Assembly: GCA_001443025.1 (NCBI GenBank) | Contig: LEKP01000003.1 | Coordinates: forward strand, 86,652 to 150,651 | Origin: Parcubacteria bacterium GBS-2 | GTDB taxonomy: Bacteria > Patescibacteriota > Minisyncoccia > Minisyncoccales > GBS-2 | DNA length: 64,000 bases | Reading direction: 5' to 3' | Part shown: positions 451 through 48,048 of the stretch, piece after piece | Layout of the letters: each line of letters opens with the position of its first letter | How positions within the stretch are numbered: the stretch's first letter is position 1 | Notes under the pieces: generated by a model | Database searches by the model: none | What the model saw: only the letters and a program-made list of their open reading frames with translations | Told to the model about the DNA's origin: nothing | Program-made: the position numbers and the translations under genes

Positions 451-3400
451 TCAAATTTTAACATACTCCTTAAATAAATTTTCAGCTTGAAAATAAAGAA
501 GTTCTGTAAATTGATTAATTTGTTGGACAGGAATTTTTCTTTTTGCCAAAAGTAACTTTATTTTTGCTTTTATTCTTGATTTTATGATTTCGTTGTTTGT
601 CCAATCTATTGTCAAATCCCTCCGAATTTCTTTTACTAATTCTTTAACAAGCGATTTAATTTCTCCATTTCTGAGAGCAATTTTTTCTTGTGTGGCTATA
701 GCATCATAAAAAGCCAATTCTTCTTCAGTTAATCCTGTTTCTTTTCCTTCAATTTCTTTTTTCTTTAATTCTTTTGCTAATTCAATAAGTTTTTCGATTA
801 CTTTTGTTGCGCTGATAACTCTGTTTTCGTACTCTTCTATTATTTTTTCTAATCTCTCCATTAGTGATTTATATCTGAATAAATTTTTTCTCATTCGCAA
901 TTGCAATTCATCTCGCAAAAGCTTCTCTAGGGTTTCAATTGCCAGATTTTTGTATTCCATTTTTTGAATTTCTTCCAAAAATTTTTCATTCAAAATCGAA
1001 ATTTCCGCTTTTTCTTTTCCTCTTAGGGCAAAAATATCAATTACACCTTCTGCGGTAATACTTTTTGCAATTAATTCTTTCGCTTTCATTTCAATTTCTG
1101 GCTCTATTCCTTCTACTGCTCTTATTGTAGTTCTTTTAATCAAATTACTTCTAATCGCTCTAAAAAATTCAATTTCATCTTTAATTTCATAAGCCTCTTT
1201 GTGTGGCATTGCAAATTCAAAAAATCTAATTAAAAGTTGAGATTCTTTTAAAAATCTTTTTTTCCTTTCCTCATCAATTACTCCAGTTTTTGGATTAGTT
1301 ATAACTGAATTAATCGCTTTCTCTAATAACCTTGCCAAATTTTCCCCTTCTAAATATTTCCATTTTGAATAATCAATTCCAACAAAAAAAGATTTCACTA
1401 TGTCATATTTTTCTTTCATTTTTTCAATTATTTTTTGGAGCGGAATTAAAGCTTCAGTTTGAATCTTTCTATCATAAATACTTAATGTTTTCCTTAAATC
1501 ATCGGCAATTCCAATATAGTCAACAATTAACCCTCCTAACTTTCCTTTAAACACTCGGTTTACTCTCGCTATTGCTTGAAACAAAGTATGATTTTTCAAT
1601 GGTTTATCAAAGTACATTGTTGTCAAACAAGGAATATCAAAACCAGTCAGCCACATATCGCACACGATAACCATTTTTAAAGGATCGTCTGGATCTTTAA
1701 ATCTTCTTTCTATTTCTTCCTTTCTTATTTCTTTTTGAATTTCATTTTTAAATTCTTCTGGTTTTGAAATTACAACTGCCATCTCTGGAGCCCCAGGAAT
1801 TTTTGAAAGGATTTTATACATTTCTACCGCTACTTTTCGACTAATAGTGCAAACCATCGCCTTACCCCCTTCTTTCCGGTTGTTAAAATGCTCTATAATG
1901 TCTTTTGCGATTTTTTCTAATCTATCTTTTGCAGAAATTGCTTGTTCTAATCTAGCCAATTTCTTTTTTAACGCTTCTTTTACTTCAAAATCAGCGCCCA
2001 CCTCTTCCATTAACTCATCAAACTTTTCATCAATCCACATATCAGTCAAATGTAAAGGAACTAATCTTGCTTCATAATAGATCGGAACAATAGCTTCGTC
2101 CTCAATCCCCCGGCTCATCGTGTATTGATGAATATAATCTCCAAAAACTAACCTTGTATCCCTGTTTCTCAAACTAATTGGAGTAGCAGTAATTCCTAAA
2201 AAAGAAGCATTTGGCAAAGCTCTTCTGGCATTACCTGCCAATTTTGCATACTCTGAACGATGCGCCTCATCTGCAATTACAATAACATTGTTTCTTTTAC
2301 AAAGTGGTTCAAATTCTTCTCTCGAAAATTTTTGAATTGTAGTAAAAATTAACTCTGCCCCTGCTGTTTTTAATTTCTCTTTCAAATCCTTTATACTTTC
2401 TGCCTTTTTCGTGATTGCTTTATAACCACATCTCAAAAATGTCTTGTAAAATTGTTCGTCTAAATCGTTTCTATCAGTTAAAAATACAAAAGTCGGGCTT
2501 GAAAGTTCGGGTAATTTTTTTGCCTTATTCACATAAAAAACCATTGATAAAGTTTTCCCGCTACCTTGAGTGTGCCATAAAACCCCAATTCTTCCGTCTC
2601 CTTTTGGTTTTAATGCCTTTAATGTCGCTTCAATTGCTTTGTTTACTCCAAAGTACTGATGATACATGCAGATCTTTTTCGTATATTTTGTTACCTGTTT
2701 TTCAGAATCTGCCTCAAAAACAATAAAATTCTCAATAATATCTAAAATTCTTCTTTTTTGAAAAATTCCTTTTACTAAAACCTCCAACTCAGACACTCCT
2801 TCTCTTTTTTCTCTCTCTTCCTCAATTTCTCGCCATTTTTTAAACCATTCAAAAGAAGAGGAAATCGTTCCATATTTTGCTTCAGTTAAATCAGAAATTA
2901 CTAAAATTTGATTGTATTTAAAAAGTTCTGGAATATCTTTTTTATATTCTTGTAACTGCTCAAAAGCACTTTTAATCGTTGCTTCCTCAATCGTTGGATT
3001 TTTCAGCTCAAAAACTGCAATCGGAATTCCATTTATAAAAACTACAACATCTGGTCTTCTCATTCTCTCTTTTCCTCTAACCGTGAATTGATTTACAACT
3101 AAAAATTCATTGTTCAAATAATTTTGAAAATCAAAAACTTTCACTAAATCTCCCTTTCTTTTTCCACCCTTTTCCTTAAATTCAATTTTTACCCCCTCAG
3201 TCAGCATTCGATAAATTTCTCTATTTGCAATTTCCAGGTTCGGGTGAGAAAAACTTAAAAGTTTGTTTATTGCTGTCTCTATTGCTTCCTCTGGCAATCC
3301 TTGATTAATCCTGATTAATGCCCTTTTTAATCTTTCAACTAAAACCACATCTTGAAAATTAGGATCTTTCCTTTCTGGCATTATTCCATTAAAAGCAATA

Positions 3401-4346: not shown

Positions 4347-5560
4347 ACCCTTATTTCTCCGCTCATTAATTTTGGTAAAAGCAAATCACGTAGAGTGGCT
4401 AAAGTTTGGTTTTCTTTTCTTATTTCGTCAATTTTTTCAATCATTGGTTGAATCATCTCGCTAAATTTTAGTGCTAATTCTGGCGGAGGAACAACAAACT
4501 TTTGAGCGGCAAATTCCGGCCAATGACCTTTATAATCGCTCATTTTGATTTTATCTTTTGTTAAATAGAAAACAAAGGTCGTGGGGTATCCATTTATTCC
4601 GACATATGGAATCACATTTTGAATACAAGAAAAATTAAAAGTAACTAAACGATAATAGCAAGTATGATTTGAAAAAACTGCAACTGGATTTTTTACGCTT
4701 GCTTTTACATCTGGCTCTCCATTATGATAACCTATAATCCCTGACTGTCCTTGATCTAATATTGGCACTTTGCCCGTGGGTAATGCTGTTTTATTGTCAT
4801 ATCTTTTACCCACTGGCAATCTCTTCGTAATTTCCATTATATTTTTTACCCCCCATCCCTCCGGAATTTTGCCTAATTCTGAATCTACGAATTTTACTTT
4901 TTCCCAACCTGGAAATCTAAATTTTACAAACCACTCCTTAAAAATTTCCTGTGCCATTTGCTCCAAAGTTTTAATAATTTTATTATTCAACTCAATCTTA
5001 TCATCAAAAGCAGAAAGAATATCAGCAATCCGTTTTTGTTCGCTTGGGTCTTCGGGAATTGAAAGTTCGATATTAGCAAGATCGCTTTTACGCAGATTAT
5101 TAATATTAGTTCCTTCTACTATTTCTTGAAGTTGATTTTTATAATTAGACGAACGAAGATAAAGATATAAGTATCTAGGTTCAATACTTTTTGGTCTTAT
5201 ACAGTACATAAAAGCGCCAAAGGATAATTGCTGATCAATTTGATATATTCTTGCGATTTTACCAACTAATTTTTTATTACCACTTGAAGCCACCACTACA
5301 ATATCATTTGTACGTAATTTTTGTTCGTCAGAAATTTTTGAATCTATCACATACATCAAATCATCAAGATTAAGGATTCCATTTTCTTTTATATTATTTG
5401 CACGAAGAATTGGTGTTCCTCCTTCAAACCATCTTAAACTTCTTTCTTCTTTACTGAAAGAAACGCCCCTAATTATATCCGCTACCTCCCCCAACCTCAC
5501 CTTCCGCCATCCTTTGGGTAAATTGTTTTGGTTTTTGTGTTTCATATTTGAAACATTCAT
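4343..5560 (-). CDS. hsdS: Type I R-M specificity subunit (HsdS), two target-recognition domains
   Basis: 405 aa. Central conserved helix SEQKRIADILSAFDDKIELNNKIIKTLEQMAQEIFKEWF and C-terminal LATLRDLLLPKLMSGEI. An alternative start lies at 5545. Confidence 0.85.
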   Translation of the reverse strand: MNVSNMKHKNQNNLPKGWRKVRLGEVADIIRGVSFSKEERSLRWFEGGTPILRANNIKENGILNLDDLMYVIDSKISDEQKLRTNDIVVVASSGNKKLVGKIARIYQIDQQLSFGAFMYCIRPKSIEPRYLYLYLRSSNYKNQLQEIVEGTNINNLRKSDLANIELSIPEDPSEQKRIADILSAFDDKIELNNKIIKTLEQMAQEIFKEWFVKFRFPGWEKVKFVDSELGKIPEGWGVKNIMEITKRLPVGKRYDNKTALPTGKVPILDQGQSGIIGYHNGEPDVKASVKNPVAVFSNHTCYYRLVTFNFSCIQNVIPYVGINGYPTTFVFYLTKDKIKMSDYKGHWPEFAAQKFVVPPPELALKFSEMIQPMIEKIDEIRKENQTLATLRDLLLPKLMSGEIRV

Positions 5561-5597
5561 GATTGTCCCACTTTTCGACTTGACATAAAATTTTGCT

Positions 5598-5661
5598 ATA
5601 ATAAAAGTGTAGGCAAATGCCTACTAATCACGCGGCCCGCGAAAGCGGGTTTTCGCTTTTT
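5598..5661 (+). ncRNA. Candidate small antisense RNA in the hsdM-hsdS spacer
   Basis: Plus-strand TTGTCC (5563-5568), 17-nt spacer, TAAAAT (5586-5591). Hairpin GTAGGC-AAAT-GCCTAC (5609-5624), then hairpin CCCGC-GAAA-GCGGG (5636-5649) followed by TTTTCGCTTTTT. Confidence 0.3.
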
Positions 5662-5807
5662 ATATAAGTTCTTTTTCCTCTATAAAATTTCCCAAAATCA
5701 ATATATAAATCTTTTATTTGATGCAACTCTTTTGAAACCATTCCTCGTACACCTACAACGTAAATTCTTTTTTTATATTTAATTTCGATTAAATCACTAA
5801 ACTTCAT
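5628..5807 (-). CDS. Small 59-codon ORF directly after the hsdM stop (possible gene fragment)
   Basis: ATG at 5805-5807, 1 nt after the hsdM stop. Own translation MKFSDLIEIKYKKRIYVVGVRGMVSKELHQIKDLYIDFGKFYRGKRTYIKSENPLSRAA, stop at 5628-5630. Below the ORF-track length cut-off; no family recognised. Confidence 0.2.
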   Translation of the reverse strand: MKFSDLIEIKYKKRIYVVGVRGMVSKELHQIKDLYIDFGKFYRGKRTYIKSENPLSRAA

Positions 5808-40816: not shown

Positions 40817-41377
40817 TTAATATTCAAATCCGCCAACTACCCATTCCATTTCGTTTTGCCAATTTCTATTGGGACAGCTCCAACCGGGACTTTGAGGATG
40901 GGGTCCGTTGCTTGTTTCCATATCTACAATACCTAAAACAAAGTATGCACCCCGAGAAGGATCACAACCGTAACTTCCTGCCGGGTAGCGATAATAGCGA
41001 TAAGTATACCCTCCGCAGGTTCCTGTACCAATTGGGTCTCTGGGGACACTACTCATTAAACCTTCGTCCACCAATGGTTCAATAAAGGGTTTTCCGTCTC
41101 CATCATTGTCTACAGTCGAAGTATCCCAACAGCCGCATCCCCCCTCACATTCTCCATAGGCTGAGGTTGGGCCTGGATACCTTTCATACTTATCATAATA
41201 TAACTGAAGAGCTGTTAAAATTTGCCTCATATCAGATAATCTTCTTGCGTCCCTGGTTTTGGCTCTTGCTCCTTTTAAACTCACCAAAACAATCGAAGAC
41301 AACATTCCAATTACCGCAATGGCAACTAAAAGTTCAATTAAGGTGAATGATTTTCCTTTTGTTTTTAATATTTCCAC
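40817..41377 (-). CDS. Type IV pilin/pseudopilin-like protein
   Basis: Prepilin N-terminus ...KGKSFTLIELLVAIAVIGMLSSIV. Cys-rich globular part with a DNDGDG motif. GTG start. Confidence 0.75.
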   Translation of the reverse strand: MEILKTKGKSFTLIELLVAIAVIGMLSSIVLVSLKGARAKTRDARRLSDMRQILTALQLYYDKYERYPGPTSAYGECEGGCGCWDTSTVDNDGDGKPFIEPLVDEGLMSSVPRDPIGTGTCGGYTYRYYRYPAGSYGCDPSRGAYFVLGIVDMETSNGPHPQSPGWSCPNRNWQNEMEWVVGGFEY

Positions 41378-41421: not shown

Positions 41422-42354
41422 TTAAGGTTTTAGTTTTTGCAAATAATCGTAAGCAGATAAAGCTGCTTTTGCCCCTTCTCCGCAGGCAGTGATTATTTGC
41501 TTGTATTTTCCGACATTACAATCTCCAGCAGCAAAAAGACCCGGAGTCTTAGTTGCCATTGTTTCAAATTCAACAATAATTTCTCCTCTTTCGTTAAACT
41601 CAACTAAATCCTTAACGAAAGAGGTTGCGGGGATGTTGCCAATCTCAATAAAAACTCCATCTACTGAAAGTTCTTTTAATTGTTGTGAAACTAAATCTTT
41701 GTAAACAAGAGAGTTAACAAATTTTTCTCCTCTTATTTCTTCAACTTTTGCATTCAAAATTATTTCTACTTTCCCAGTTTTTTGAGCCCTTTCTTGATTT
41801 TCTTTTTCTGCTCTGATTTGACTTGAAAATTCTAAAATGTATATCTTTTTTGCGTATTCTGCCAAAAGAATTGCTGTTTCAAATCCAGCATTTCCTCCGC
41901 CAATCACTGCTACTATTTTATCTTTAAAAAGAGGGGAATCGCACAAAGGACAATAACTCACTCCTTTTCCTAAAAATTCCTTTTCTCCTTTTACCCCCAA
42001 ACTTCTTGGGTTTGCTCCAGAAGCAACTATCACTGTTTTTGAAAAAAATTCTTTTTGGGCCGTCACTTTTACTCTAAAAATTTCCTTTTCCTTTTTTATT
42101 TCCACCACTTCTCCCATTTCAATTTCGATTGGGTACTTTTTCAAATGAGAAACGAATTTTTCGATTAGATCTTGACCTGAAATTTCAGGAAATCCTGGAA
42201 AATTCTCAATTTTTACAACCTTTCGATTCACTTGGCCTCCAAAATCTTTTGTTATCATCAAAGTTTTCAACTTTTGCCTTAAAGCATAAATTCCAGCAGT
42301 AATTCCTGCTGGTCCTCCTCCGACAATTATTAAATCGTAAATTTTCTCTGTCAT
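41422..42354 (-). CDS. trxB: Thioredoxin reductase
   Basis: DLIIVGGGPAGITAG, redox CPLCD, GGGNAGFE, AAGDC. Confidence 0.9.
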   Translation of the reverse strand: MTEKIYDLIIVGGGPAGITAGIYALRQKLKTLMITKDFGGQVNRKVVKIENFPGFPEISGQDLIEKFVSHLKKYPIEIEMGEVVEIKKEKEIFRVKVTAQKEFFSKTVIVASGANPRSLGVKGEKEFLGKGVSYCPLCDSPLFKDKIVAVIGGGNAGFETAILLAEYAKKIYILEFSSQIRAEKENQERAQKTGKVEIILNAKVEEIRGEKFVNSLVYKDLVSQQLKELSVDGVFIEIGNIPATSFVKDLVEFNERGEIIVEFETMATKTPGLFAAGDCNVGKYKQIITACGEGAKAALSAYDYLQKLKP

Positions 42355-43226
42355 ATTTCTTTTAAAACCTCAGGAATTGCCTCAATGACATCTGTTGCAG
42401 TTAATCCATCTTTAAATTTTTGAGCTGCAATTTCTCCTGCCCTTCCGTTCAGATAAACTCCTGCTTTTGCTGCCAAAAAAGGATCTATTTTTCTTGCCAC
42501 CAATGCACCGCAAATTCCAGCTAAAGTATCCCCAGTTCCTCCAACTGCCATGTAAGGAGATCCTGCTTCACAGAAAGCAACTTCTTTACCGTTTGTTACA
42601 ATATCTGGTTTTCCTTTGAGTAAAATCACAGTTTTTAACCTTTCTGCCTCTTCACGAGCAATTTTTATTTGATCTTCCAATGGCAGTTGATAAACTTTTC
42701 TCCCCGTTAAAACAAAAAACTCATAAGCGTGAGGAGTGAAAAGAAATTTTTTCCCAGGGATTATTTCTGGTTTTTTCGCAACAGCATAGATTGCATCTGC
42801 ATCGATAACTACTGGAACATCAATTTTTGAAAGATATTCAATTATTGCCTCTTGGGTTTCTTTTGTCCTTCCCATTCCTCCGCCAATAACCACCGCAACT
42901 TTTCCTTCTGCGACCAATTTTGCAGATTCTGTCATTTCAAAAAGAATTGGTAAATGCTTTTTTGTCAGCCATTTTCCTTCTAAAGGATAAGCTGCCAAAT
43001 TTGGAGAAAAAGATGCAATAATGTCTGCTGCCCTTTTTGGAGTAATGATTCTGACCATTCCAACTCCAGATCTAAAAGCAGCCATTCCAGCTAAAGCTGG
43101 AGAACCAGAATAAAAGTCAGAGCCTCCAATGACAATCAAAAGCCCAAAATCGTATTTTTTAAAATATTTCTCCTTTGGTCTCTCTGGAAAAGTTTCTTTT
43201 AAGATTTCTTTTGTTATTTTCTCCAT
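42351..43226 (-). CDS. nnrD: ADP-dependent NAD(P)H-hydrate dehydratase (YjeF C-terminal family)
   Basis: GGSDFYSGSPALAG..., GGTGDTLAG. Confidence 0.8.
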   Translation of the reverse strand: MEKITKEILKETFPERPKEKYFKKYDFGLLIVIGGSDFYSGSPALAGMAAFRSGVGMVRIITPKRAADIIASFSPNLAAYPLEGKWLTKKHLPILFEMTESAKLVAEGKVAVVIGGGMGRTKETQEAIIEYLSKIDVPVVIDADAIYAVAKKPEIIPGKKFLFTPHAYEFFVLTGRKVYQLPLEDQIKIAREEAERLKTVILLKGKPDIVTNGKEVAFCEAGSPYMAVGGTGDTLAGICGALVARKIDPFLAAKAGVYLNGRAGEIAAQKFKDGLTATDVIEAIPEVLKEI

Positions 43227-43239
43227 GTTTTAAATTTTG

Positions 43240-43311
43240 CTGCGGGGCCTGGATTCGAACCAGGACTTGTGGCTTCAGAGGCCACCTGCCTACCAATTAG
43301 CAGACCCCGCA
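43240..43311 (-). tRNA. tRNA-Gln (anticodon CUG)
   Basis: Manual cloverleaf: TGCGGGG/CCCCGCA acceptor with a U1-A72 pair and G73, anticodon arm GTGGC-CTCTGAA-GCCAC, T arm CCTGG-TTCGAAT-CCAGG. No encoded CCA. Confidence 0.85.
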
Positions 43312-43317
43312 ATGAAA

Positions 43318-44214
43318 TTAATACTGCCTAAATTTAATTAAATCCTTTATTTTGTAAACTTCCTCCTTTCTTGAAATTTGGATTTTGTCTTTACTCTTGT
43401 GTGGGTGAAAACCTAAAATCTTCAATGCCTCAAAAACACTTTTAAGCAACGATTCATTCCTATTGGCAAATAAAAATTTGTAAGTGTAAGTTGGCTTATG
43501 TATACAGAAACTTCCTTCAGCTTCATACAGTCCACGGAGATATCTTTTGAGATAATGCTTATTTTTAAAAATCCATCGAGGGGTTTCTATTTTCTGATCT
43601 TTTCGTTTCCCAAGGGGAATTCCTAATTTTTTACTTAAATCTTTCATATAGAGCGAGATTGCGATACAATTCGATTCTTTTCTTTTGTATACCTTAGGTT
43701 TTTTCTTTAAAACTTTCTTAATCAAATGAGAGTATCTTTTTATAAACCCTGAGTTTCTCGAATTTGAAAGAAGAACAAGGCGTTCAGTTCGAGGAAATTT
43801 TTCCAAAGATCCGTCGCCTAAAATCACTCCAATTAGTTCTGCTAAGTCTCCATTCTTTTGAACAAATAAATCAACCCTCTTTGAGACAGATCCTCTTTCC
43901 TTTTCCTTTAATTTTTTCCGCCACTTCGCAAAATTATCTATCTTTTTCTTTTTAAAGGTTGTTGAAATTTTTGCAACACTAGGATGAGTTTCTTTTGTAA
44001 ATCCTTTATTCCAAGGAGGTGGTCTTTTCTTTAAACTTTCTTTCCATTTCATATACCGTGGATCGTCTTTCGGCAAGAGATTTGGGAGAAGAAAACCGCA
44101 ATTTTTTGTTCCAAATCTTTTGGTATATTTTTTAAGAGTCCATTTATGAACCGAAGCTAAATGGGTGTTTGTTATAATTTTAAAGTGCTTTCCGCAGAGT
44201 TTACATTTGACCAT
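43318..44214 (-). CDS. Free-standing LAGLIDADG homing endonuclease with an N-terminal CxxC...HxxxH zinc finger
   Basis: Two LAGLIDADG motifs, LIGVILGDGSL and YLRGLYEAEGSF. N-terminus CKLCGKHFKIITNTHLASVH. Confidence 0.85.
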   Translation of the reverse strand: MVKCKLCGKHFKIITNTHLASVHKWTLKKYTKRFGTKNCGFLLPNLLPKDDPRYMKWKESLKKRPPPWNKGFTKETHPSVAKISTTFKKKKIDNFAKWRKKLKEKERGSVSKRVDLFVQKNGDLAELIGVILGDGSLEKFPRTERLVLLSNSRNSGFIKRYSHLIKKVLKKKPKVYKRKESNCIAISLYMKDLSKKLGIPLGKRKDQKIETPRWIFKNKHYLKRYLRGLYEAEGSFCIHKPTYTYKFLFANRNESLLKSVFEALKILGFHPHKSKDKIQISRKEEVYKIKDLIKFRQY

Positions 44215-44220
44215 TCTTCA

Positions 44221-44229
44221 ATTATATCA
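44221..44229 (-). promoter_or_regulatory. Extended -10 (TGaTATAAT) of the LAGLIDADG gene, leaderless geometry
   Basis: Minus strand GTGATATAAT, then 6 nt (TGAAGA), then the ATG at 44214. Confidence 0.45.
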
Positions 44230-44243
44230 CGAACTTTAAAAAT

Positions 44244-44266
44244 CTATCACTAGACGACCCCGCAAC
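44244..44266 (-). repeat. Decayed duplicate of the first ~23 nt of tRNA-Gln
   Basis: Minus strand TTGCGGGGTCGTCTAGTGATAG versus the tRNA 5' end TTGCGGGGTCTGCTAATTGGTAG. 10 nt are exact and about 18/23 match overall. Confidence 0.7.
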
Positions 44267-45166
44267 CTAAATTTTCAAAAACCTTCTTATCGCAATTAAA
44301 CTTGGAATCGTTCCTAATAAAATTCCAGCAAAAATTTGAATTAAAATCAAGGCTTTCAAATTTGAGTGGAAAACTTCAAAAAGATTTAACCCTTCAAATA
44401 AAATTGAGATTTTTGGTGAGAGAAAGTAACAAGATAATGAGACTATTAAAAGAGAAAGTAAAGCTGATAAAATGCCAGCAAAAATTCCTTGAACTAAAAA
44501 TGGCCCTCTGATGAACCAGTTTGAGGCACCGACCAACTTTTGAACTGAGATTTCTTCTTTAAAATTGATAATGGACAATCTGGTAGTGTTAAAAACAACA
44601 AAAACCGAAATTAAAATCAAAATCAGAGAAACCAAAATGCCTCCTTTTTCTAAATTTGTGCTCAAAGAAAATATTCTTTCTATCAACGGCTTTCTCTCTA
44701 AATAATCGATTTTTTCAATGAGCTCTTCTTTTTCTTTTAGATAAAAAAGTAATTCTTCATACTGGCTGGGTTCTTTTGCTTTAATGCTCAAAGAAGCCAA
44801 AAAAGGATTTTCTCCTATTTCTTTTAAAGCTTCCATTAAAATCGGATTTCTCTGATGTCTCCTTTCAAACTCTTTTAACGCTTCTTCTTTCGAAACAAAA
44901 TCAACTTTAAATTCTGGATTTTTAGAGATTTCTTCTTTGATTTTTAAAATTTCATCTTCTGGCGCTTCTTCTTTAAAGTAAACAGAGACATCAGCTTTTT
45001 CTTTTAAAGAGAAAATTAAAAATTGACTAGTTTTTCTGAAAATAAACAAAAAAGAAATTAAAGAAATTGCAATAAAAAGAATTGATACTGAAGTTAGAAA
45101 GATCTCTCCATCTCTCGTGATTGTTTTAAATCCATATTTAATTGTTCTTTTGAATTGGGTAATCAT
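44267..45166 (-). CDS. ftsX: Cell-division ABC permease-like protein FtsX
   Basis: 299 aa. TM1, extracytoplasmic domain, 3 TM. 4-nt overlap with ftsE. Confidence 0.8.
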   Translation of the reverse strand: MITQFKRTIKYGFKTITRDGEIFLTSVSILFIAISLISFLFIFRKTSQFLIFSLKEKADVSVYFKEEAPEDEILKIKEEISKNPEFKVDFVSKEEALKEFERRHQRNPILMEALKEIGENPFLASLSIKAKEPSQYEELLFYLKEKEELIEKIDYLERKPLIERIFSLSTNLEKGGILVSLILILISVFVVFNTTRLSIINFKEEISVQKLVGASNWFIRGPFLVQGIFAGILSALLSLLIVSLSCYFLSPKISILFEGLNLFEVFHSNLKALILIQIFAGILLGTIPSLIAIRRFLKI

Positions 45167-45855
45167 AAGACAAATTTCCCTTTTTTTTCGTCTCTAACTA
45201 TTTCTCCTTTTTCCAAAGTAATTACCCTCTTTCCTAAAATATCAACGATATTTTTGTCGTGAGTTGCTAAAATTATTGTCGTTCCCATTTGATGAATTTT
45301 TTGAAAAATTTTGAGAATGTCCAAAGTGTTATAAGGGTCTAAGTTTCCAGTTGGTTCATCTGCCAAAATTACTTTTGGTCTTGAAATTAATGCTCTAGCA
45401 ATTGACAATCTTTGCTTTTCCCCTGCTGATAGTTCGCTCGGAAAACTCTCTGCTTTTTCGTTCAAGCCAACAATTTCTAAAACTTTTGGCACATCTCTTT
45501 TTATCTCTTCATCCAAAAAACCGATAACCTCCATCACATAGGCTAAATTTTCAAACGCTGTTTTTGTCGGTAAAAGTTTATAATCTTGAAAAACAACTCC
45601 AATTTCTCTTCTCATTCTTGAAATTTCTCCGTCTTTCATTTTGGTAATATCCTTTCCCTCAAAAAAAATTTTCCCCTCAGTGGGTTTTTCTCCAGCAAAG
45701 ATTAATTTCAAAAGGGTGGTTTTCCCCGCTCCGGATTTTCCAACTATTAAAACAAACTCTCCCTTATCGATTTCAAAAGAAACGTTCTTTAAGGCAAAAA
45801 TTTTTTGTTTGTTTTTTGTCTCAAAAATTTTAGTTACGTTTTGAAATTTTATCAT
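45163..45855 (-). CDS. ftsE: Cell-division ATP-binding protein FtsE
   Basis: GKSGAGKTT, LSAGEKQRLSIARAL, ILADEPTGNLD. Confidence 0.9.
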   Translation of the reverse strand: MIKFQNVTKIFETKNKQKIFALKNVSFEIDKGEFVLIVGKSGAGKTTLLKLIFAGEKPTEGKIFFEGKDITKMKDGEISRMRREIGVVFQDYKLLPTKTAFENLAYVMEVIGFLDEEIKRDVPKVLEIVGLNEKAESFPSELSAGEKQRLSIARALISRPKVILADEPTGNLDPYNTLDILKIFQKIHQMGTTIILATHDKNIVDILGKRVITLEKGEIVRDEKKGKFVL

Positions 45856-46898
45856 ATTTTATTTCTGCCTCGATAAAATCGTCTAAATTCCCTGCAAAGA
45901 CTTCTTCAACATCTTTTTTCTCAACTTTTGTTCTTAAATCTTTCACAAGTTTGTACGGATCTAAAACATAATTTCTAATTTGATTTCCCCAAGAGGGTTC
46001 TATTTTCTTTCCCTTCAATTTTTCAATTTCCTTTTCTTTTTCTTGTTCCATCAATTGATTTATTCTTGCCATCAAAAGCTCGAGTGCCTTTTCTTTATTT
46101 TGGGCTAAAGATCTTTCCGTTTGGCATTTTACAGTGATTCCAGTTGGTAAATGAGTAACCCTCACTGCGGTCATTCTTTTATTTACATATTGTCCTCCAG
46201 CTCCCGAAGCTTTCATATATTCAAATTCCAAATCAGAAGGATTTATCTTAATTTCTTCTTTCTTTATCTTTGGTAAAACCTCAACTAAGACAAAAGAAGT
46301 ATGTCTTAACCCCTTTGCAGAAAAAGGAGAAATTCTTACCAATCTATGTACTCCTCTTTCCCCTTTTAAAATTCCGTAGGCATACTTTCCCTTAACTTCC
46401 AAGGTACAACTTTTTATCCCAATTCTTCCTTCTGGTCCTGGTTCTCCAAAAGATTGATCCAAAATTTCAATTTTGAATCCCTTCTTTGTAAGATATCTTT
46501 GATACATCGAAAGTAAAATCGCAGCAAAATCTTGAGCATCCTTTCCTCCCTGCCCTGCTTCAATGATTAAAATTGCATCTTCTTTGTCATATTTCCCGCT
46601 CAAGAAAAATTCTTTTTCTCTTTGTTCTATTTCTTTCTCCAATTCTTTCAACTCATCCTCTGATTTGACACTTTCGATCTCTAAATTTAATATTTCAAAA
46701 TCTTCAATCTCATCTTTAAGTTTTTTGTATCTTCTTGAAATTTCTTCTGCTTTTTCTTTATCTACCCAAAAACCCTCTTTTTCCATTTCCTTTTTTAAAT
46801 TTTCAATTTCCTTTTTCTTTTTCTCAATTTCAAAGACAGTCCATTAAAAATCGAACTCTTTTTTTTAATTCTTCAATTTTTGATTGAATTTTTTCCAT
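45830..46898 (-). CDS. prfB: Peptide chain release factor 2, with a programmed +1 frameshift at CTT TGA (46835-46830)
   Basis: Frame 0: MEKIQSKIEELKKRVRFLMDCL then TGA. Skipping T46832 continues EIEKKKKEIENLKKEMEKEGFWVDKEKA... into the 45830-46786 ORF. SPF and GGQ motifs are present. Confidence 0.9.
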
Positions 46899-46899
46899 G

Positions 46900-46970
46900 A
46901 GCCGCCCGTCGGACTTGCACCGACACCTATCGCTTACGAAGCGATTGCTCTTCTTTTGAGCTAGGGCGGC
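46900..46970 (-). tRNA. Non-canonical tRNA-Thr (anticodon CGU)
   Basis: GCCGCCC/GGGCGGC acceptor, anticodon arm ATCGC-TTCGTAA-GCGAT, T arm GTCGG-TGCAAGT-CCGAC. The D loop AAAAGAA lacks GG and the T loop has G at position 55. Confidence 0.55.
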
Positions 46971-47592: not shown

Positions 47593-48048
47593 CCCAAAAG
47601 TAGGTAGTAGGCCGGATTCTGTTTCTACGCCACCATCTGTCTGGGCCAGAGATTTCTCCCTGGCTCAAGCGTGCTCAGAGAAATCGGAGGCAACACCCCA
47701 ATTTCTCTCGCACTTGCACCCCGCAGGGATTTAGCCGTTTCACCCTCCCCTTTGCAAAAATTTGCTTATAGGGAGGCTATCCCCCCAGATGTATATCTGG
47801 GGGGACCCCCAAGGGTTACCCCTTGGAGCGTCTCTGTTCGCACCCCTCACCTCACGGTGGCCGGGCGTTACCCGGAGCGTTTCCCCCAGATGTACATCTG
47901 GGGGAAGGTGTCCGGACCTTCCTCCCCCCACCATTCTTTGTTTAATAAACCCACTTCTCAATAAATACCTTAATTCAAAAACTTAATTTTTTATTACTTC
48001 TTTATTCCCCAAAAAATGGTGGGGGGCGGTGGCGCCCCTACTTTTGGG
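47593..48048 (-). ncRNA. rnpB: RNase P RNA (bacterial type) with an enlarged AT-rich P3
   Basis: Minus strand GAGGAAGGUCCGGAC (P4 5' half), CCGGGUAACGCCCGG (P8), ACAGAAUCCGGCCUAC (P4 3' half). P1 pairing CCCAAAAGUAGG/CCUACUUUUGGG. Confidence 0.85.

Follow-up and report, generated by a model that had tools for sequence, protein, structure and literature searches.

A probable free-standing LAGLIDADG homing endonuclease cassette within the tRNA-Gln(CUG) gene of a Parcubacterium

The interval between ftsX and tRNA-Gln

The stretch of DNA analysed here, 64 kb of a contig from Parcubacteria bacterium GBS-2 (hereafter the window), carries on its minus strand ftsE, ftsX, an open reading frame (ORF) of 298 aa, a tRNA-Gln(CTG) gene and a Carb_kinase-family gene, in that order (Table 1). 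The subject of this report is the segment between ftsX and the tRNA, whose ORF encodes a predicted LAGLIDADG endonuclease. Read on the minus strand, the segment runs from the ftsX TAG stop through G, TTGCGGGGTCGTCTAGTGATAGA, TTTTTAAAGTTCG, TGATATAAT and TGAAGA to the ATG, continues along the ORF to its TAA, and passes by way of TTTCAT into the tRNA, which begins TGCGGGGTCTGCTAATTGGTAGGCA...

The window is poor in G+C (32.6%). The G+C-rich 10-mer GACCCCGCAA occurs in it exactly twice, at the tRNA 5' end (43303-43312) and at 44256-44265, where 100 dinucleotide shuffles gave an expectation of 0. The second copy heads a displaced piece of tRNA-Gln, TTGCGGGGTCGTCTAGTGATAGA, that covers positions -1 to about 23-24 and thus comprises the 5' strand of the acceptor stem together with the whole D-arm. 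This fragment matches the family consensus for the tRNA-Gln 5' end, TTGCGGGRTCGTCTAAYGGTAGG, at 20 of 23 positions; no other match of this quality occurs in the window, and chance would give none. Its resemblance to the window's own tRNA is weak past the initial 10 nt, and that tRNA does not itself match the family consensus within three mismatches.

From its sequence and AlphaFold model, the ORF product is a monomeric double-motif LAGLIDADG protein with an I-DmoI-like core and both catalytic acidic residues. Pfam LAGLIDADG_3 was matched at residues 223-284 (E 8e-7), and the catalytic motifs read LIGVILGDG (with D134) and LRGLYEAEG (with E233). When a profile of 27 homologues was compared with the Protein Data Bank (PDB), I-DmoI was matched over both motifs (E 9e-4), with LIGVILGDG aligned to the D21 motif and LRGLYEAEG to the E117 motif. 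D134, E231 and E233 are invariant in all 27 aligned homologues, while GDG is found in 120 and EAEG in 118 of the 120 top matches. The AlphaFold model has a mean pLDDT of 85.9, with values of about 90-97 in the core (aa 119-298), and its best Foldseek match in the PDB was again I-DmoI (E 4e-8, TM 0.64-0.67), followed by I-AniI, the bI3 maturase and PI-PfuI.

Pfam ROS_MUCR aligned with residues 2-37 below threshold (E 2e-3; 18.8 bits against a cut-off of 25.4). The CCHH residues of this zinc finger are invariant in the 24 finger-bearing members of the 27-homologue alignment and present in 99 of the 120 top matches. The finger is optional in the family. Many homologues begin at residues 42-68, and three lengths occur, of approximately 295 aa (with the finger), 260 aa and 232 aa. 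A NUMOD3-like motif (WNKGxTKETHPSVxKIS) was suspected in the N-terminal region; it gave no Pfam match at E <=0.1 and is not claimed. The protein had no match among the phage families of PHROGs.

The protein does not fit a domesticated regulator of the WhiA type, given its retained catalytic residues, the patchy presence of the gene and the lack of a C-terminal helix-turn-helix after the core; in the AlphaFold model the protein ends where the LAGLIDADG core ends. WhiA itself gave only a weak Pfam match (20.5 bits; cut-off 23.2) and a lower-ranked fold match.

The extended -10 element TGATATAAT ends 6 nt before the ATG and is the best site in a promoter scan, with 10 of 12 matches and a TG extension. 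No intron RNA family was detected by Rfam between 42000 and 48000, and the ORF, with a promoter of its own, does not sit in an intron or intein setting. The LAGLIDADG gene is the sole ORF of the ~950-bp cassette, in which no recombinase was found. The cassette is best read as a unit of about 955 bp (approximately 43287-44242) that holds the promoter, a leaderless ORF and a replacement for tRNA-Gln positions 1 to ~25.

The original prediction had placed a 298-aa double-motif LAGLIDADG protein with an N-terminal zinc finger between ftsX and tRNA-Gln, outside any intron, with an extended -10 element 6 nt from the ATG and, upstream of this promoter, a decayed copy of ~23 nt from the tRNA 5' end that included an exact 10-nt repeat. 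Each of these elements was recovered here by Pfam and Rfam searches, motif inspection and coordinates.

Empty and occupied tRNA-Gln(CUG) loci

A scan of species-representative genomes yielded 59 loci with homologues, in 59 genomes. These belong to Parcubacteria (Jorgensen-, Campbell-, Nealson-, Niyogi-, Yonath-, Nomura-, Portnoy- and Vogelbacteria) and Microgenomates (Woese-, Roizman-, Ames-, Beckwith- and Shapirobacteria). Wherever the contig reaches past the nuclease gene, a same-strand tRNA-Gln(CTG) follows, with 0-16 nt between the nuclease stop codon and tRNA position +1. The upstream neighbour is ftsX in many Parcubacteria and other genes in other lineages; the constant partner of the nuclease gene is therefore the tRNA. 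The family is compact, comprising 36 representatives at 50% identity with E 1e-30 or better.

About nine loci (L021, L023, L026, L049, L051, L055, L056, L061 and L065) lack a stop ahead of the tRNA, and their LAGLIDADG ORF runs into it. In some of these the stop is a TAA or TAG of the tRNA D-loop region, and in L051 the frame stays open beyond the entire tRNA. Cleavage by RNase P would give a non-stop mRNA.

The ftsX/tRNA-Gln junction was then compared among relatives. An FtsX alignment was searched in metagenome contigs, giving 80 loci, of which 57 could be scored for a downstream tRNA-Gln(CTG). The LAGLIDADG gene was absent from 52 of these and present in 5; the tRNA thus works without it. 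A further locus (L099) has the gene on a contig that stops short of the tRNA and lies outside the 57. A single defined site, 0-16 nt 5' of tRNA-Gln(CUG), accordingly lacks the gene in most of the scored loci and holds it in a few, as is characteristic of a homing endonuclease gene. In most of the 52 LAGLIDADG-free loci the tRNA starts 0-8 nt past the ftsX stop (e.g. L067 2810-2816, L105 5395-5398). The pseudo +1 position of the window fragment lies 2 nt past the ftsX stop, where the tRNA begins in the empty sites. All but one of the LAGLIDADG-free loci (51/52) hold a single copy of the tRNA 5' end; the remaining locus has a second tRNA-5'-like copy upstream and contains a GIY-YIG gene.

We had at first favoured a vertically inherited, conserved gene pair, given the universal linkage to tRNA-Gln and conservation at the level of FtsE, but this view was overturned by the excess of loci that lack the gene.

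Fragments like that of the window are widespread. Against shuffles at p<0.02, 25 of 52 loci have a match to the tRNA 5' end, placed 30-75 nt upstream of the ORF, and by a criterion based on the D-arm core a displaced fragment is present in 49 of 62 occupied loci. The fragments share the consensus TTGCGGGATCGTCTAATGGTAGGA, followed by AAAA, and lie nearer to it than to the working tRNA of their own locus.

Exact matches to the 14-nt D-arm core GTCTAAYGGTAGGA were found in 25 of 52 tRNAs at LAGLIDADG-free sites as against 2 of 59 working tRNAs at occupied sites (Fisher 2e-8), a P value that, like the others in this section, is descriptive and overstates the evidence, since empty and occupied loci were drawn from different collections and lack phylogenetic independence. 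In the regions upstream of the nuclease gene the core was present in 13, 26 and 35 of 56 loci at 0, 1 and 2 mismatches, respectively, compared with 0.4-2.4% of random windows. Compared with the working tRNA of the locus, the fragment was nearer to the core in 36 cases, equally distant in 5 and farther in 15 (sign test 0.005). In the window, the working tRNA has the D-arm TCTGCTAATTGGTAGGCA, unlike the proposed target core, and in sequence the upstream copy is more similar to the commonest tRNA-Gln allele of LAGLIDADG-free sites than to the window's own tRNA. L087 and L096 represent alleles of the target type, with the ftsX-tRNA junction TGCGGGGTCGTCTAATGGTAGGACGGATGCC... Such a distribution is what would be expected if GTCTAAYGGTAGGA belongs to the recognition site of the enzyme, with susceptible alleles common in uninvaded genomes and the invaded allele preserved as the displaced piece. 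The working tRNA beside the nuclease gene carries another D-arm, in which the changes compensate one another.

The acceptor part of the fragment, where recognisable, is often of another tRNA-Gln allele type than the working tRNA (L009, L016, L017, L050). Its similarity to the tRNA of the same locus did not significantly exceed that to the tRNAs of other loci (6.35 vs 6.18 of 8 positions, p 0.13), a result that favours neither copy in the window as the native one.

Promoter geometry is also conserved. TAnnnT stands 5-9 nt (usually 6) before an in-frame start in 53 of 58 loci, compared with 11% of random ATGs, and a TG-extended -10 occupies the same place in 44 of 58, compared with 2%. Most Parcubacteria have the fragment's GGTAGG ~19 nt ahead of the -10. 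The fragment core is thus placed in the -35 region and, with its retention in some loci where the acceptor part is lost, this suggests a secondary use as a promoter or operator element. I-TevI is a homing endonuclease that represses its own promoter through an operator resembling its homing site. The left junction of the Parcubacteria type reads GGTAGGAAAA, ~19 nt and then TGnTATAAT. In Microgenomates and a few other lineages (L051, L055, L057, L058, L061, L065, L041 and L020), a D-loop-like TGGTA is joined directly to TAAT, forming the extended -10 TGGTATAAT 5-9 nt before the start.

No terminator was found between ftsX, the ORF and the tRNA, and the 6-nt spacer between ORF and tRNA is too short to hold either a terminator or a separate promoter. 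A leaderless mRNA, co-transcription of ORF and tRNA, and release of the tRNA by RNase P, the RNA of which is encoded in the window, would fit this arrangement. Candidate tRNA promoters in the 3'-terminal part of the ORF (TTTACA-16-TAAATT and the Tyr-stop TATTAA) were rejected, being no better than chance and at inconsistent distances from the tRNA.

A second, unrelated nuclease family uses the same tRNA. Small GIY-YIG genes (~80 aa) were found in five LAGLIDADG-free loci with longer ftsX-tRNA gaps, three of them intact and two degraded. A displaced tRNA-Gln 5' fragment lies directly after ftsX in L103, L106 and L107, as well as in the ORF-less L128, with a junction that differs from that of LAGLIDADG loci. 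Because the 5' duplication is shared, it would stem from colonisation of this tRNA by nuclease genes rather than from one protein. The working tRNA of GIY-YIG loci retains the LAGLIDADG target-type D-arm; the altered D-arm is thus specific to the LAGLIDADG gene.

G+C-rich palindromic (hairpin) insertions of 25-40 nt split the fragments in L103 (~5425-5490), L106 (~5295-5365) and L128 (~5410-5520), an example being TTGCGGGATCGTC[cctcggccgtagcccgttaggctacagcctacgggcgagg]CTAATGGTAGGAC. They may be small mobile hairpin elements.

The locus had originally been explained by the insertion of a mobile unit into or next to the tRNA gene with regeneration of its 5' end, the cassette being framed by direct repeats of the tRNA 5' portion. 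Empty sites and family-wide fragments support this account, and the layout of gene-end replacement recurs in most occupied loci. Two outcomes had been named as arguing against it: neither the persistence of the pseudo-repeat in endonuclease-free relatives, nor a gene fixed everywhere that had lost its catalytic residues, was observed. The account had concerned a single locus; insertion at tRNA-Gln stands, and is refined to a family always located directly 5' of tRNA-Gln(CUG) across Patescibacteria.

A homing model and its rivals

Taken together, we consider it likely that the window contains a free-standing LAGLIDADG homing endonuclease cassette that resides inside the tRNA-Gln(CUG) gene and has supplied it with a replacement 5' part. 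The case is built from sequence comparison, namely the anatomy of the locus, the predicted fold and catalytic residues, sites with and without the insert, a target-like fragment beside a divergent working tRNA, and the promoter geometry.

The events from which such a locus could arise may be outlined as follows. The enzyme would recognise the uninterrupted tRNA-Gln(CUG) gene at a site that includes the D-arm core GTCTAAYGGTAGGA. The end of the fragment at position 24/25 makes it probable that this site bridges D-arm and anticodon stem and reaches across that position into the latter; the zinc finger and the helical N-terminal region may make extra contacts. A target-type gene would be cut and the break repaired from an occupied allele, whereby the promoter, the ORF and the new 5' part are copied into the broken gene. 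The displaced fragment, aided in close relatives by the flank upstream of it, would provide homology on the left, and the 3' part of the tRNA would do so on the right. The recipient's own 5' part would stay upstream, directly after ftsX, as a non-functional fragment, while the ORF-adjacent copy completes the tRNA and its divergent D-arm would protect the occupied allele from recutting. The tRNA would be transcribed through the ORF and freed by RNase P, and the displaced fragment, which overlaps the -35 region of the cassette, may be kept as a promoter or operator element. Repair that used the donor's working tRNA on both sides would generate resistant empty alleles. Such repair may explain LAGLIDADG-free sites with non-target D-arms, including those nearest the window, and its possibility means that either copy in the window may be the native one.

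Pairwise identities correlated only moderately between nuclease and FtsE (r 0.38, against 0.85 between FtsE and FtsX), and the nearest neighbours of nuclease and host proteins agreed in 10 of 30 cases. Some close pairs track the host (L021/L023, 0.91 vs 0.92; L036/L048, 0.86 vs 0.88; also L010/L012). The pairs L017/L063 and L035/L050 do not: FtsE identity is 0.85-0.86 and nuclease identity 0.65-0.67, with differing N-terminal architectures. Approximately 5 of the 59 nuclease copies are frameshifted, truncated or interrupted. No relatives were found on viral contigs, and there is thus no evidence for a phage vector. These comparisons indicate vertical descent over short distances and, over longer ones, independent gains, losses and allele replacement, a pattern that fits the cycle of invasion, decay and loss of homing endonuclease genes.

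Several observations weigh against a homing cassette, or against parts of the scheme above, besides the overstated P values already mentioned. The mean identity of the nuclease (0.57) equals the FtsE level (0.58), as a long vertical history with purifying selection could produce, and near-identical nuclease genes in divergent hosts, the mark of recent transfer, were not seen among the compared loci. No empty allele was found within the window's own species, all eight recovered contigs (8/8) carrying the gene; a query with the exact FtsX protein returned one more occupied contig, and one with the downstream Carb_kinase-family protein matched no record, neither query being informative on polymorphism. 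Both cleavage of the target and resistance of the occupied allele are predictions drawn from the distribution of the core, which most displaced fragments share with the susceptible alleles. In two to seven occupied loci the D-arm of the working tRNA is itself target-like (e.g. L034, L038), and simple D-arm immunity is therefore not a complete account. The LAGLIDADG-free loci nearest the window by FtsX share the D-arm of its working tRNA, and either of the two copies in the window may therefore be the imported one. Finally, about a dozen loci have kept the D-arm core of the fragment and lost the acceptor-like part, which suggests that the fragment is under selection and not simply a relic.

Some of these features would suit a domesticated, vertically inherited and immobile LAGLIDADG protein acting as a DNA-binding regulator of a nuclease/tRNA-Gln(CUG) operon by binding to the tRNA-like element of its promoter, and perhaps to the tRNA gene as well. 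In favour of this reading, the protein is conserved to the same degree as FtsE and tracks its host in the three close pairs named above. The fixed distance of ~19 nt between the upstream D-arm core and the -10, with overlap of the -35 region, would then mark an operator, for which repression by I-TevI offers a precedent, and the tRNA lacks room for a promoter of its own; neither recent transfers nor strain-level polymorphism were detected. We nevertheless regard this explanation as unlikely. The gene is present in only 5 of 57 ftsX/tRNA-Gln loci, its catalytic residues are invariant, unlike those of WhiA, and degraded copies exist. Genomes with closely related hosts carry divergent nuclease genes of different N-terminal architectures, and an unrelated GIY-YIG gene gives the same duplication, which points to a mechanism of insertion rather than to a LAGLIDADG-specific operator.

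A further alternative, to which we give little credence, is that the fragment belongs to the mobile unit, as a portable left homology arm or operator, and that a block of fragment, promoter and ORF inserts exactly at the 5' boundary of the tRNA. The fragments are indeed more alike among themselves than to the adjacent tRNA, their acceptor parts are no closer to the tRNA of their own locus (6.35 vs 6.18 of 8, p 0.13), and the LAGLIDADG-free sites of the window's clade share their D-arm with its working tRNA rather than with the fragment. However, the fragment starts at the +1 position of the empty-site tRNA (2 nt past the ftsX stop, compared with 0-8 nt), GIY-YIG insertions also have a displaced fragment with a different junction, and the fragment equals the commonest natural allele of LAGLIDADG-free sites, as displacement of the target predicts.

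A chance repeat, an ordinary spacer beside a stationary gene, or the remnant of a tRNA-targeting integrase island is highly implausible: although the 10-nt repeat is short and integrases that restore the end of the gene classically target tRNA genes, the 10-mer repeat and the 23-mer consensus match are unique in the window with 0 expected, the fragment recurs in 49 of 62 related loci, the sole ORF of the cassette is the LAGLIDADG gene rather than a recombinase, and the tRNA is duplicated at its 5' end and not at its 3' end.

The closest parallel to a homing cassette of this kind is found in fungal mitochondria, where mobile endonuclease ORFs (mORFs) make hybrid genes of atp6 in Allomyces macrogynus and of atp6, atp9, cox2 and nad3 in Glomus (PMC3630166). 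The mORF carries a foreign C-terminal gene segment, and the native one is left displaced downstream (PMC3630166). In both settings a LAGLIDADG or GIY-YIG ORF lies inside a host gene without intron or intein (PMC3630166), the replacement gene end stands beside the ORF, the native end survives as a displaced duplicate that is not expressed, the two copies differ, and presence among relatives is patchy. As far as we could find, gene-end replacement had been described only for the 3' ends of fungal mitochondrial protein genes (PMC3630166); searches of the literature on LAGLIDADG or free-standing endonucleases yielded no description of it at tRNA genes or in Patescibacteria. The present cassette differs in its bacterial chromosomal location, its tRNA host gene and the replacement of the 5' end, whereas mORFs occupy mitochondrial protein genes, replace the 3' end and are often fused in frame. 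Its ORF is unfused, with its own promoter at the start codon, and one site is used phylum-wide.

The protein resembles I-DmoI and related archaeal rRNA-intron enzymes in its predicted fold, in both motifs and in having a conserved structural RNA gene as its proposed target. It differs from I-DmoI, to which it is ~20% identical, in being encoded by a free-standing gene and in an extra N-terminal region of ~118 aa with an optional CCHH finger; here it is known from sequence and model.

The free-standing homing endonucleases of T-even phages (Seg, Mob) carry out intronless homing, and SegB lies in the tRNA gene cluster of T4. As is proposed for the cassette, they sit beside their targets, spread by break repair with co-conversion of flanks, and leave occupied alleles protected by sequence. 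Unlike the cassette, they are GIY-YIG or HNH enzymes encoded between genes, with no gene splitting or end regeneration. Work by Brown et al. from 2015 reportedly found LAGLIDADG genes within insertions of the 16S and 23S rRNA genes of Candidate Phyla Radiation bacteria, and thus in the same phylum, with the same nuclease superfamily and with structural RNAs as targets. Those intervening sequences are removed from the RNA, whereas here the tRNA is restored by duplication of its 5' end and there is no intervening sequence. Integrase islands at tRNA genes are marked by a tyrosine or serine recombinase and by repeats of the tRNA 3' end, and the cassette fits neither feature.

Homing endonuclease genes are thought to survive in essential genes mainly by means of self-splicing introns or inteins. 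Colonisation of a bacterial chromosomal tRNA gene without intron or intein would be another way to live inside an essential RNA gene. The comparison also yields a predicted recognition sequence together with natural susceptible and resistant alleles, which makes the enzyme directly testable, and the I-DmoI-like core with its zinc-finger and helical DNA-binding modules is a potential new meganuclease scaffold. For annotation, tRNA-like fragments and short nuclease ORFs beside tRNA-Gln in reduced genomes now become explicable.

More speculatively, tRNA-Gln(CUG) could be a Patescibacteria-wide battleground of at least two unrelated nuclease families (LAGLIDADG and GIY-YIG) that replace its 5' end, with its unusual D-arm diversity arising by escape from cleavage and the half-site co-opted as a promoter or operator element through which the nuclease sets tRNA expression. 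We hold this wider scheme to be possible but doubtful; if true, it would represent a step from parasite to regulator.

Feature coordinates and neighbouring genes

Table 1 Coordinates of the cassette, its flanking genes and the GIY-YIG genes of related loci. Positions are those of the window unless a locus (L) is named.
Feature	Coordinates	Strand	Basis
ftsE	45163-45855	minus	
ftsX, upstream flank of the insertion site	44267-45166 (TAG stop 44267-44269)	minus	Pfam FtsX_ECD and FtsX; comparison with empty sites
Displaced, partly decayed tRNA-Gln 5' fragment (acceptor 5' strand and D-arm)	44243-44265	minus	10-mer repeat, consensus match, equivalents in related loci
-35-like GTGATA inside the displaced fragment	44245-44250	minus	promoter scan
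Extended -10 promoter element TGATATAAT	44221-44229	minus	sequence, promoter scan, conserved geometry in homologous loci
LAGLIDADG ORF, 298 aa, free-standing	43318-44214 (stop codon included)	minus	Pfam, homologues, alignment, AlphaFold model
CCHH zinc finger, ROS/MucR-like, aa 2-37 (C4, C7, H18, H23)	44104-44211	minus	sub-threshold Pfam match, residue conservation
Double LAGLIDADG core, aa 119-298	43321-43860	minus	I-DmoI profile match, Foldseek, invariant residues
6-nt spacer TTTCAT, ORF stop to tRNA +1	43312-43317	minus	sequence
Functional tRNA-Gln(CUG), D-arm TCTGCTAATTGGTAGGCA	43239/43240-43311	minus	ARAGORN; Rfam tRNA 58.9 bits
Working tRNA 5' part (~25 nt), copy restoring the gene beside the ORF	43287-43311	minus	
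Carb_kinase-family gene, NAD(P)H-hydrate dehydratase	42351-43226	minus	
Intact GIY-YIG genes	L103 ~5413-5740; L107 ~5404-5720; L130 ~3083-3335		Pfam PF01541, E 1e-15 to 8e-17
Degraded GIY-YIG genes	L095; L106		

The order tRNA-Gly(CCC), tRNA-Thr(CGT), prfB, ftsE, ftsX, tRNA-Gln(CTG) is widely conserved in these bacteria, and in loci with no nuclease gene tRNA-Gln(CTG) is probably the tail of a prfB-ftsE-ftsX message. A few kb downstream of the tRNA are pilin-like genes with an N-terminal methylation motif (type IV pilin or pseudopilin; 40817-41377 on the minus strand of the window, and 7784-8854 in L001), which have no relation to the cassette. The RNase P RNA of the window (class A; 47593-47939, minus strand) was matched end to end with 87.5 bits against an Rfam gathering score of 100; several of its helices are short or absent and it appears reduced. 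Lastly, prfB (46830-46900, minus strand) has the classic programmed +1 frameshift: its short upstream frame, MEKIQSKIEELKKRVRFLMDCL, stops at CTT TGA (~46830-46835), and the +1 frame runs into a 318-aa ORF at 45830-46786.

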